64,000 nt of DNA from NCBI GenBank assembly GCA_964016885.1, contig OZ024743.1, positions 180,234,001 to 180,298,000 of the forward strand, in the 5' to 3' direction. The notes beneath the pieces are model-generated. The model saw only the letters and a program-made list of their open reading frames with translations, was not told where the DNA came from and did not search any database. This stretch comes from Eledone cirrhosa. Taxonomy: Eukaryota. The stretch's first letter is position 1. Every line of letters starts with the position of its first letter. Positions 2,184-61,365 of the stretch are shown piece by piece. Both the position numbers and the translations under genes were made by a program.

Positions 2184-3021
2184 TTATTTACTCGAAAATC
2201 AATCTCCCGGTCTTTGAAAATAACACCGAAATCAAAGATCCTGACCTGGAAATGAACAATACTTTCTATTTTGGTTGGGAATAGATACTCTAATTCAACT
2301 TGTTCAATATAGGCTTCACTCGATCTTTATTCAATTGAATTACTTCTTAGACACATAAACTACTTTTGTTTTACTATATCCTTCTCGCATACAAGTCATC
2401 CCGAATAAACTAATAAGAACATAGCGAAGTAAATACCGTGTGATCAAATTAATATTTGGAAAGCTACTCAATATTATATATACGTGTTATTGTTTTGTTT
2501 TAATGGTGTAAAAAATGACAGCTCGATTATCTGTATCTTGTAGCAATCAAAGGTACCTTCACCTCGATCTTCCTATAACTTTTAATATAACTATCTCCCA
2601 ATCATAGTAGGAAATATATACATGATCAAATGAGGAAATATGAACCCAATTTTCTTGCTGTATATTTATTTTAAAGAATAATATTCATGAATTTTATCAT
2701 ATAGAAAAATCATGTTCTCTACTCTATAAATAAAGTGAATCATGCGAATGTAAAGTTAATATCCAGCGATGAACAACCAAAGAAAACAACCCTTCTCATA
2801 TATATATATATATATATATATATATATATATATATATATATATATATATATATATATATAGAATTAGATAATTTGTATTCCAATGTTACTAAGTAGTTGC
2901 ATTGGATGGAGTCAACTGACGTCAGAGATTGCTCAACGTATAATAAAGTGTGTTTTAAAATCCGGAGAAAATATGGAGAAAAAAATTTACGAAATGGAAA
3001 TGCGGGTATATAGAATTTATT

Positions 3022-3138
3022 AGGTAACAATTGTTTCTATAGTGTATGAGTTACCTATACCTCGCTATTTGAATAATACACAAATATTATCAAAAACCGA
3101 AAGTACACTGTAAGCCAACACACCATGTCATCAGACCT
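3022..3138 (-). ncRNA. Type I hammerhead ribozyme (inverted copy of 6078-6194)
   Basis: Reverse complement of the 6078-6194 motif. Confidence 0.8.
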
Positions 3139-3747
3139 TTGTATTAGAATGATATGAAAGTATTTTATACACTAGATAAAAGATAAAGAAGGAGGTAGGA
3201 AGAGAAGGGGAAGAGGGAAGTGAGTAAGGTGGAGGGAATCTTAGGGTTTAAGACTGTCAGACTAGTAGAGATTGTGAAGAGAGAATGTTTTGGCAGCAGT
3301 TAGCTTAATGAGGCGTGCTAAGGTTGGCTGGGAAGTAGATACTTCTAGTGGTGTTGTTCGGACAAAATTTAGTTAGAGGGGTCAAAGTGGTACAATGTCA
3401 CAGACAAGTTATTAGGGCTATTATAGTAGCAGGTTATTTCTAAAGGGGTCCAGAAAAACAGTGTTTAGTACTATTATTATAGAAAGCCATATCTAGTGTA
3501 TAAACATATAAAACAGAAATTTGCAAACCGTGGTGTAAAAAGGTAACATTATATGCATTTAAAAAAAGAAAAAGTCGTTTTCAAACGATGGTTACAGTAT
3601 AGAGAACGTTCAATTTTGCTGTTCAAAAGTTTGTTTACCGACGTTAAAATGCAGTATATCTCTAAATTGCATAACTTGCAGAATCGATGATTTTGCTGAT
3701 ATGCAGGCGCAGCTGCAATAATTTGCCAATCAAGGGAGAACGCTTGA

Positions 3748-58397: not shown

Positions 58398-58539
58398 TCA
58401 TGATTTCTGAAGACAGCATATATATGTGTAGGTATGTAGATTCCCTCTGATAGTTTGTATAAATATTGTACATAGATCTATAGAATATGCATACCAACTC
58501 TAATACATATATATCCTAGAAACGACCGTAAAATGATGA
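58398..58539 (+). ncRNA. Type I hammerhead with 105-nt stem II region
   Basis: TCATGATTT-CTGAAGA-c-AG.ATATATATGTG...TACATATATAT.CT-a-GAAA-CGACCG-TA-AAATGATGA; GUA triplet. Confidence 0.75.
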
Positions 58540-58749
58540 ATTTTTTTAATATAAGGAATTGTTTCTTTGTTTATTCATTATTTTTTTAATAATTTATCTT
58601 GACTCTGTTTTCCGTTTATTTTTCAGCGAAAGTAGTTTTTGAATGCATCTTCTCTTTCCATGATATCCGGATTACATTGAGTTCTTCATACGGATTGGAC
58701 ACGACCGTAAACTTTTGGTAGATGTATCTACATATATATATATATATAT

Positions 58750-61365
58750 ATATATATACATATATATAATGTGAGTTTTATTGTAGCACAATAAAGCAAT
58801 GCAAATATCGGATAAGTAGCACTCAACAGTTTATAGGATTGGAGTATAAATAATATAAAATCAAAAGATGGTTAAAAGAGTTCAATGTATTTTATTATGC
58901 GCATTTCAAAAATAAAAAATCATCATGGGATGATATTTGCGTTCTCATCAGATAAAATAGGGAGACATGATATGAAGCTTAAAAAACACTTGCGAGCAGT
59001 GAAGTGTTAAATCAACATATGAAAAATAAAATATGATGCATATATGAGATTGGGAAAAAAAAGGAAAGGAAGGGGGGAAGGAAAAGGTAAGGAAGAAGAA
59101 AATAGAATATAATAAGAAAAAAATATATAATAATAAGGAAAGGATGACGGAGGAGGAGTATAAGAAGGAAGGATGAGAGAGGAGGAGAAAAGGAGTGAGA
59201 GAGAGAGAGGGGGAGAGAGAGAGAGATAACCTTTAATACTGAGAAACACTATCTCACAGAGATAATACATAATTTTTTAAAAATTTAGAAATTAAAAAAT
59301 AATGAGGTTTATGAATGGTGATGCTTATGATTAAAGAAAAAGGAATTAAGAATACTATTTATTTAAGGTTTATATATTGAAGGGTTTAATAATATGTGCG
59401 AAAATGAATTTATTAAAATGTATTATTAAAATAAAATATATTAAGGAGATAAGGTGAATGAAGATAAGGTTAAATGAATTATGAACTTAGAGGAATTAGT
59501 TAGGGTCCAAGTTTGTTTGTATGTATTGTAATAGGAAACAGTAAATAATAGGTTTAATACGAGCACGGAAGGAGAGAAGAAAGAACATAATTCAAGGTAG
59601 AAAAAATATATAACGTCAAAAAAATTATATGTTTACAAAATTTACTAATGGTAATATTAGTATATATTAAAAATAAAAATGTATATGGCCGAGAATATAA
59701 GGAAAATGCTATAGTGAGTTATAATATGAATTAAGAAGTAATTGAGAAGTAAAAGTTGCAGATTAAAGATTAGAAATTAAAAAAGAAAAAAAGGATATAA
59801 AAGAAGAAAAATAGGGGACCGCTCACGACATAGTATGAGTAAATTGTATAATATACTGAAATAAGGTAGAAAGATGGGTATATTTGTAAAAGATATAAAA
59901 GCGTTTGAGAAAAGAAGATTTTAAACTAATTAGGTAGTAAGATATTGGCTGTATACTTTATAGAAAGTTCATGGCATTTATGCAAGCAGAGCGAAAATAA
60001 ATCCGTACGTTTATTTATTATAGAATTAAAATTAGAGATAATGGTAAATTTCTCCGCTAGGCAGAGATTACATGTTCTGGATAGGTAAGAATTCAGGTAA
60101 GATGCATATATGAGATTGAGAAAAAAAGGAAAGGAAGGGGGGAAGGAAAAAGTAAGGAAGAAGAAGATAGAATATAATAAGAAAAAAATATATAATAATA
60201 AGGAAAGGATGACGGAGGAGGAGTTGCAAACCTTCCTCCAAGAAATGTTGTAGTTAATATTTTTGTCCTTTAAGGACCATATGAGTTCTGTGAGTGCCGT
60301 GTTAGTACTTTTAAGTTGGTATTTAAAAGAAGAATTGTGATTATAAAATCTTGCTTTAAAGGAAGTGGATGTGGAACCAAAATAGGTAAAATAATTAGTA
60401 CCAGTTATAACCTTACATTTATACACTAAATTCTTATCAAGACATTGGTTACTAAGAGGACATTTAGTACTAACAGGGCAATTGCAATTACGATTAGAGA
60501 AATTACCAGAGTTATTAACAAGTGACCTAGTATTATTTCTAGAAGGAATTGGATTGGAGAAGTTATTTACGATAGGTGCTAAAGTTTCCGGATTTAGATA
60601 GTTACGTTTGACGTCGTATTTAAATTTACGGAATCTAGCCTAGAGTTAACATTGACGTCGGGTTTACTATTGCTATTATTATAACGCTCAGTATTGGATG
60701 GATATAATTTATTACTTAATATTTTATTATTATGTTTAGAGATAATGTTAGAGATGTTGGAAGTGGTGGAATAAGAGAATTTAATTGTATGTTTGTTAAA
60801 GATCTTACTATAAATATGCGAGAGGGGGAAATATTTATCTAAGGCCCTAAAAAATAGTTTAGGAATATTACTAATAATAGATAGAGAAAAAGGAGCGTTG
60901 TACCAAATCATATTTTTATATCTAGGTCTTTTCTTTAAGTTATTGGAATGCTTATAACTAACTATATTACTATAAGTCCCTCGCTGATTGGTTTCTTTAC
61001 TGTATTTAATTTTGTCAGGATAACCGGCTCGTGGAAGTGCATTAATGTAATAATTGGCTTTAGCGTCAAAGATAACTTTATTAGAAGATAGATTTGAGAT
61101 TCTCTTTTCAACATTACTGACGAAAGCATTTTTAACGTTAATAGGGTGGTTAGATTTAAAATTAACATAATTAAGATTCTCATTATCTTTATGGTAAGGG
61201 TAATATAGGCCGGTGTCAAGATTAAGGGATATATTCAGGAAGTTAGCTAGTTTAACGTTGTTTTCAAATTCAATTTTTAGGTTATGGTGCTTAAATAGAT
61301 CAAGTATATTATTCTTAATAATATTAAGGTTAACTAAATTACAGTTTAAGACAGTAATAGGATTT
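58750..61365 (-). mobile_element. 5'-truncated, frameshifted Hydra-like PLE, tail-to-tail with the 55.3-58.7 kb element
   Basis: ANFLNISLNL..KSNHP, MIWYNAPF, CNCPVSTKCPL..C, YFGST, CNLC, CLH. Confidence 0.88.
58888..58959 (-). ncRNA. Type I hammerhead ribozyme
   Basis: TATTTTAT-CTGATGA-..ATCATC-ccat-GATGAT..-GAAA-TGCGCA-TA-ATAAAATA; perfect 8-bp stem I. Confidence 0.87.

Follow-up and report, generated by a model that had tools for sequence, protein, structure and literature searches.

Penelope-like elements of the window

The window, i.e., the whole stretch of 64,000 nucleotides (nt) corresponding to positions 180234001-180298000 of contig OZ024743.1 in the 3.0-Gb genome of Eledone cirrhosa, is dense in Penelope-like elements (PLEs). 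The pseudo-long terminal repeats (pLTRs) of its Hydra-clade PLEs share a covarying bulged hairpin, located between a hammerhead ribozyme and the start codon of the open reading frame (ORF). The GTTGAG-type motif that a preliminary description of the window had reported downstream of the ribozyme is the 3' arm of this hairpin. The coordinates of the features are reported in Table 1.

On the basis of the sequence of their products, the ORFs of the window encoding a YRDD reverse transcriptase (RT) belong to the Hydra clade, whose features, as given in passages of Craig et al. (2021, PMC8557442), include RWK, DKT, CxCx5C, and an endonuclease end with CxxC/CxH. R-x-RW is invariant in all the eight aligned N-termini, with K (three), R (four), or T (one) as the next residue, and DKG is replaced by DKT (ADKTS in family A, SDKTK in family B, and SDKT in L149). 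CxCx5C precedes the C-terminal GIY-YIG endonuclease in the ORFs 3748-5667, 9923-10456, 55252-56838, and 59926-60639; the translations, read by eye, show an endonuclease devoid of CCHH, with CxxC and CxH towards its end (in family A, CKLC ... CNH). The full tandem unit of family A is about 3017 bp long, carries both RWK and DKT (L029), and has open frames of 778-784 amino acids. A short single ORF and a preference for (TA)n targets were also observed, and the pLTRs harbor canonical hammerheads, which were called with our own type I hammerhead descriptor (score of at least 12); the Rfam Hammerhead_1 match in L298 falls below the gathering score. The Rfam scan of the window, dominated by (TA)n false matches, gave no hammerhead among the 150 matches listed, and Pfam returned RVT_1 only, below threshold. 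The families sharing the motif had been described as unrelated; this description does not hold, every ORF-bearing family among them being assigned to the Hydra clade.

The hairpin downstream of the hammerhead

The hairpin has the form RCTC-stem-loop-stem-TH-GAGY; 31 hairpins show G, A, or T as closing base and TT, TC, or TA as bulge. The seven strings listed in the preliminary description are correct in coordinates and strand, and six of them coincide with the 3' arm of such a hairpin. The distances between the cut and the motif are 88 nt at 2937 (about 85 nt past the hammerhead in the preliminary description), 92 nt at 9307 (about 88), and 68 nt at 58827 (about 60); the 12078 site ends 32 nt ahead of the ATG at 12045 (about 33). 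The site at 8059, with no linked hammerhead in the preliminary description, belongs to hairpin 1 of a 5'-truncated copy; the matching part of a family that carries a hammerhead is its hairpin-1 region. The exception is 46187-46196 (-), which is not an element-sense motif: its relatives carry the hammerhead on the + strand, so that the string corresponds to a variant 5' arm read in antisense. In this repeat family (46165-46254 +; L341-L363), the 3' arm of the variant hairpin departs from GAGY; 10 of 23 relatives fit the anchor pattern, one (L348) has a clear upstream hammerhead, and several have decayed cores recognized by eye. The list of sites was also incomplete, because the window contains four further hairpins with a TC or TA bulge or with ATTGAG.

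The bare hexamer is unremarkable in the window, since its count matches the shuffle expectation (13 occurrences of GTTGAGY versus 10.64 +/- 3.46, with 28 of 100 shuffles reaching 13). The analysis also covered a genome sample of 140 evenly spaced 10-kb stretches (1.4 Mb), in which the hammerhead descriptor gave 112 matches, grouped into 35 clusters, versus 1, 2, and 2 in shuffles. The reading RTYGAGY and the preceding complement ACTCC were fixed after the first 40 stretches, ahead of the remaining 100; the TA-bulge variant joined the hairpin descriptor later, after the inspection of published Hydra consensus sequences and the hammerhead scan. For the enrichment, the descriptor CTC-N...N'-TH-GAGY was searched past the hammerhead.

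A match to RTYGAGY lies no more than 250 nt past the cut in 23 of the 112 hammerhead copies, versus 5 on the reverse strand, 5 upstream, and 4.0 in shuffles. Counted by family, this is borderline (7/35 versus 3.8 +/- 1.8, with 34 of 500 shuffles reaching 7). The full hairpin is found past the hammerhead in 8/35 families versus 1.85 +/- 1.27 in shuffles, none of the 500 reaching 8, and the last 100 stretches alone gave 7/30 families versus 1.2 expected. Conversely, 21 of 186 strict hairpin matches lie within the 0.52% of bases following a hammerhead, where 0.97 would be expected, although the copies are not independent. Counted by family, the positional enrichment is clear for the full hairpin and borderline for the bare hexamer.

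Two hairpins upstream of the start codon

In the tandem unit of family A (L029), the order is hammerhead, hairpin 1, hairpin 2, and ATG. A total of 69 ORF starts were gathered, whose upstream DNA clusters into 10 families, plus four singletons without a match. All the 10 coding families with an intact pLTR-ORF junction have at least one member with two hairpins, even though single copies with one hairpin or none occur (e.g., L016 and L308). Of 20 ORF starts fetched once the descriptor was settled, 18 show one hairpin or more and 15 show a pair; the corresponding values are 3 and 0 on the reverse strand, and 1.6 and 0.08 in shuffles. The spacing between the two hairpins is 76-224 nt, and the hairpin lies 20-86 nt from the ATG. 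The N-termini of seven coding families are 29-65% identical and the pLTRs do not align; the proposal of a conserved cis-element between ribozyme and start codon in families with non-aligning pLTRs is supported.

The non-coding family of site 9307, with a unit of 1288 bp, also keeps both hairpins; it contains no ORF longer than 58 codons, and tblastn with PLE proteins gives no match. The window copy ends near 9347, ahead of the hairpin 2 that is present in L172, L183, and L189. This element (9100-9347 +; L172:1606-2893) occurs in near-identical copies on many chromosomes, with 1679 first-look candidates, and is a young non-autonomous Hydra dependant.

The hairpin is also found in other animals. 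Six published Hydra consensus sequences (PMC8557442, File S7) were inspected by eye: one exact hairpin is present in each of Hydra-2_Amil (coral) and Hydra-2_Ajap (sea cucumber), and two are present ahead of the ATG in Hydra-1_Ajap.

The location of the motif 20-86 nt ahead of the ATG would also suit a promoter, splice, or translation element, whose tie to the insertion ends would be incidental. The string (Y)TACTCC is similar to the initiator consensus. According to passages of PMC8557442, Penelope and Chlamys have an internal promoter and an intron of the 5' untranslated region (UTR) at this position. Each of the three functions had been put forward in the preliminary description, and each of them meets a difficulty. 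Arm spacing (5-68 nt) and the interval up to the ATG are highly variable, in contrast with the nearly fixed offset from the insertion ends, and a core promoter is unlikely because of the variable arm spacing. As regards a splice signal, GT and AG are not conserved at the motif, given the variation in closing base and bulge reported above. A translation element is unlikely because the non-coding family keeps both hairpins. As a whole, this explanation is considered very improbable, even if a secondary role in translational feedback by a bound protein may exist. Two more specific candidates were discarded: an intron spanning the interval between the two hairpins (GT...AG in family A), whose dinucleotides are not conserved, and an NK2 homeodomain site (TTGAGTG), since what is conserved is instead the pairing partner, together with TA and TC variants of the bulge.

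Insertion ends and covariation

Insertion ends were counted by keeping only the alignments ending at (TA)n (86 others were dropped), and the references L281 and L286 were trimmed of internal TA tracts. In well-sampled families, the ends adjoining (TA)n are bimodal. The 5' arm of a hairpin follows the end mode at 5-11 nt (6-8 nt in 19 of 23 modes); these values are maxima, as spacer and TA target have letters in common. With arms defined by the descriptor only, 90 of 123 ends in the even sample and the window lie 4-12 nt upstream of a hairpin, versus 5.5% expected, and the same holds for 182 of 231 ends at targeted loci. The hairpin adjoining the end is itself missing from the inserted DNA, suggesting that the signal was part of the template.

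In three families, inverted pairs consist of one long and one short arm in 40 of 47 cases, of two long arms in five, and of two short arms in two, bearing in mind that the loci were chosen by a tailed query, which favours one long arm. Family A offers an example in the window, where the + arm stops at hairpin 1 (6251) and the - arm reaches 2861, just short of hairpin 2, i.e., 5 nt short of its position in full-length copies. In PLEs, the "tail" is an optional extension on one arm of inverted pLTRs (passages of PMC3846280 and PMC8557442). The bimodal ends at the hairpins and the long/short inverted pairs indicate that in these families this tail is the stretch between the two hairpins.

For the analysis of covariation, the 5' arm was taken as the first CTC past an insertion-end mode and the 3' arm as the next TH-GAGY. 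Arms were picked by end position without demanding pairing, in order to avoid circularity; for the counts, neither a MAFFT alignment (which leaves the variable loops ungapped) nor the relaxed hairpin finder (which demands pairing) was used. Usable arms were obtained for 23 of 30 end modes, with bulges TT (15), TC (4), and TA (4) and loops of 5-68 nt. By permutations in which kinship is not modelled, the closing pair is Watson-Crick in 22/23 (15 C-G and 7 T-A; permuted mean 12.8, p 0.0002), as is the outer stem pair in 18/23 (11 G-C and 7 A-T; permuted 10.9, p 0.0008), the first inner pair in 17/23 with four pair types (permuted 6.6, p 0.0002), and the second inner pair in 12/23 (p 0.009). The pair just outside the stem shows no covariation (4/23, p 0.94). 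Rfam covariance models gave no match on L029 2350-2720 and none over the hairpins in four junctions.

Chance similarity or passive common descent might be invoked for the hexamer, which is at chance level in the window and borderline by family; for the hairpin this is scarcely credible in view of the covariation, the twin copies, and the fixed offset in families with N-termini as divergent as 29-65% and pLTRs that do not align.

Other features of the window

Table 1. Hairpins, hammerheads, and Hydra-type ORFs of the window, with the motif coordinates of the preliminary description
Position	Strand	Feature	Preliminary motif
2931..2968	-	Hairpin 1 of family A; the motif is its 3' arm	2930-2937
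3022..3138	-	Long inverted arm of family A: type I hammerhead, long stem II, cut after 3026	
3748..5667	+	5'-truncated Hydra-type ORF of family A: YRDD RT, CxCx5C linker, C-terminal GIY-YIG-type endonuclease	
6078..6251	+	Short arm of family A with a hammerhead (core 6082, cut after 6190); terminates at the hairpin-1 5' arm, (TC)n microhomology	
8062..8080	-	Hairpin 1; 5'-truncated copy, relative of a Hydra family that carries a hammerhead	8059-8068
9146..9219	+	Type I hammerhead of the non-coding 1288-bp family, cut after 9214	
9278..9313	+	Hairpin 1 of the non-coding 1288-bp family	9307-9316
9923..12045	-	Family-B ORF of the Hydra type, broken, with RWK, DKT, YRDD, CxCx5C	
12082..12156	-	Family-B hairpin 2 with a long loop (about 63 nt); ATG at 12045	12078-12088
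12203..12223	-	Hairpin 1 of family B, TA bulge	overlooked
12734..12894	+	Family-B arm, inverted, with a complete hammerhead (core 12744); stops a few nt short of the hairpin-2 5' arm	
13358..13529	+	Short 58818-family copy with a hammerhead (core 13427); stops just short of hairpin 1	
14370..14390	-	Hairpin 1 of a family-B relative, TA bulge	overlooked
26938..26961	-	L243-family hairpin 1; 5' arm of the window copy altered at one position	26935-26944
39022..39042	-	Hairpin 1, TC bulge	overlooked
46165..46254	+	Older repeat family, variant hairpin; hammerhead of relatives upstream	46187-46196 (-), antisense
58602..58682	+	Long-loop hairpin 1 of the L281 family	overlooked
58821..58845	-	Hairpin 1, 50 nt past the hammerhead cut 58896 (core 58951)	58818-58827

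The hammerheads of the window and of related loci show a variety of structures. Some have very long inserts in stem II (90-116 nt) and are overlooked by Rfam (6082-6190 + and 3026-3134 -; also L050, L070, and L102). The hairpin at 26938-26961 sits 25 nt past half a hammerhead (the 3' half), cut at 26987; here, a near-perfect palindrome of about 175 bp (26975-27150) folds back inside stem II, and the 3' half of the ribozyme alone is kept. A truncation resembling this one is located at 12270-12293. Short-stem, retrozyme-like hammerhead repeats with tandem units of 310 and 467 bp occur in L040 and L069, located at C1:245.0 Mb and C3:195.0 Mb of the genome, and also at 27579-27609 (-) in the window; none of these three matches the hairpin descriptor.

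The 3' UTR of the ORF 55252-56838 contains tandem repeats of about 113 bp and longer (56814-57330 +), several of them with a CTGATGA core. A 1.5-kb inverted repeat, 92% identical, spans 14397-17742 and contains a further remnant of a Hydra endonuclease. A decayed fragment of a non-LTR retrotransposon, with a weak zf-RVT match, is located at 36560-38527 (-) and is unrelated to the hairpins. A second PLE type, with YVDD and Neptune/Nematis-like by eye, is also present (191-2096 + and 28823-31517 +; L320-L339); it has two hammerhead-like cores in its 3' region, and the ATG lies 11 nt past the long end (L336).

Possible function of the hairpins

Of the four functions offered for the motif in the preliminary description, an RT recognition site is the best fit to a covarying hairpin that is present twice, at a nearly fixed offset from both ends. 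In PAc, the Poseidon element of Anolis, RT begins in vitro at two internal RNA sites bounding the tail, both target strands, which are AT-rich, are cut and extended, and a dimer is predicted (passages of Frangieh et al. 2024, PMC11167929). On these grounds we favour, as rather probable, the prediction that the twin hairpin is an RNA docking site setting the RT start, with a ruler of about 7 nt. A read-through RNA would fold both hairpins, and the protein of the element would bind the CTC/GAG stem and the 2-nt bulge; the endonuclease would nick the (TA)n target, after which copying would begin in the AU-rich stretch 5-11 nt upstream of a hairpin. A start ahead of hairpin 1 would generate the short end, and a start ahead of hairpin 2 the same end plus the tail containing hairpin 1. 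If one site were used per target strand, the outcome would be an inverted insertion with one tailed arm.

The fixed offsets would fit a nuclease ruler equally well. The GIY-YIG endonuclease might recognize the hairpin in single-stranded cDNA or extruded DNA and cut at a fixed distance, trimming a longer-than-unit intermediate to either end. The tail has indeed been ascribed to endonuclease-mediated resolution (passages of Craig et al. 2021, PMC8557442), and earlier work cited in PMC11167929 had the tail of D. virilis needed for endonuclease recognition. The strand that folds can be sought in the wobble pairs, but G.U and A.C are equally frequent (5 versus 5), which favours neither strand. On the other hand, the insertion ends directly abut the (TA)n target, loops of 5-68 nt speak against a duplex-DNA reading, and in passages of PMC11167929 the two ends of PAc match RT start sites on RNA in vitro. 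An endonuclease ruler of this kind appears unlikely.

The ends might also be formed on the RNA, if the hairpins were 3'-end signals causing cleavage or termination just upstream and RT started from the RNA ends so produced. Ends at a constant distance upstream of a structure might be expected from a processing signal, and the hairpin adjoining the end is never copied. Yet, long arms and full junctions read through hairpins, PAc initiates internally where there is no RNA end (passages of PMC11167929), and the long/short arrangement of 40/47 inverted insertions is simpler with one RNA used at two sites. An origin of the ends through RNA processing is accordingly regarded as quite improbable.

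Several observations weigh against the hairpin as a docking site, or reduce its generality. No hairpin was found in 27 of the 35 hammerhead clusters, many of which are short copies or short-stem hammerhead repeats, most without a clade assignment. Seven of the 30 end modes lack the hairpin, three of them at or near the end of the reference and four being small true exceptions. The permutations ignore kinship, two of the references represent one family, and the protein tree of 11 N-termini has no well-supported branch; the 20 held-out ORF starts represent one subclade, with about three families. Three of the six published consensus sequences (Hydra-1_Amil, Hydra-1_Obim, and Hydra-1_Crog) contain only variants of the hairpin. 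Several hairpins are thermodynamically weak, the minimum-energy structure differs from the hairpin drawn at the 9307 and 26935 sites, and the wobble count does not point to either strand. Lastly, in the non-Hydra PLE family of the window, bimodal ends about 46 nt apart delimit a tail, and 0 of 20 copies carry this hairpin; therefore, the hairpin would explain the tail of the Hydra clade, not all PLE tails.

If docking on RNA is accepted, a two-site version of it can be envisaged, which we put forward tentatively and hold to be somewhat doubtful. A read-through RNA might offer its two hairpins to a dimeric, telomerase-related RT-endonuclease, each protomer priming one nicked strand about 7 nt upstream of its own hairpin, so that a head-to-head insertion with one tailed arm would be made in a single event.

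In this two-site reading, the hairpin alone would represent a portable start signal, conserved from corals to echinoderms. With about 15 defined bases, the motif predicts both ends within a few bases in families with unalignable UTRs, on present evidence in the Hydra clade only. Such a rule helps to draw element boundaries and to spot non-coding dependants, and the hairpin is possibly a compact cis-signal for programmable insertion. It is relevant to start-site choice and to the one-sided tail in PLEs, the closest retrotransposon kin of telomerase, of which one has been reconstituted so far.

Comparison with known systems

The elements described here share with the Hydra clade, in the passages of PMC8557442 describing it, the motifs RWK, DKT, CxCx5C, and CxxC/CxH, the hammerhead, the (TA)n targets, and the tandem and inverted pLTRs; they differ in the length of the tail, which is 76-224 nt here and 30-40 nt there. 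The literature on the PLE tail (passages of PMC3846280 and PMC8557442) gives no sequence rule for its two boundaries, whereas here one motif predicts both, in the Hydra clade only. Full-text literature searches, with subscription papers, Repbase notes, and the PAc supplements outside their scope, returned no description of the hairpin; the words "hairpin" and "stem-loop" do not occur in the main text of PMC8557442, nor does "stem-loop" in passages of PMC4209133, nor "hairpin" in those of bioRxiv 10.64898/2026.07.22.740005.

The start sites of PAc, in passages of PMC11167929, belong to an AC-rich stem loop inside the ORF of one element, with no cross-family motif reported. By contrast, the hairpin described here occurs in repeated form within the 5' UTR, and has the ends upstream of it, not inside it. 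Ends matching starts of the PAc type, inside a stem loop of the ORF that is AC-rich, were not observed, the ends being located in spacers that are AT-rich, 5' of the hairpins and ahead of the ATG.

A wider analogy can be drawn with RNAs that are bound by an RT. In the 3' UTR of R2, the epsilon of hepadnaviruses, and the template boundary element of telomerase, a structured RNA bound by the RT sets the start or the stop of copying. No homology with them is claimed; each of these is a single element, whereas the hairpin of the Hydra-clade PLEs is twin.

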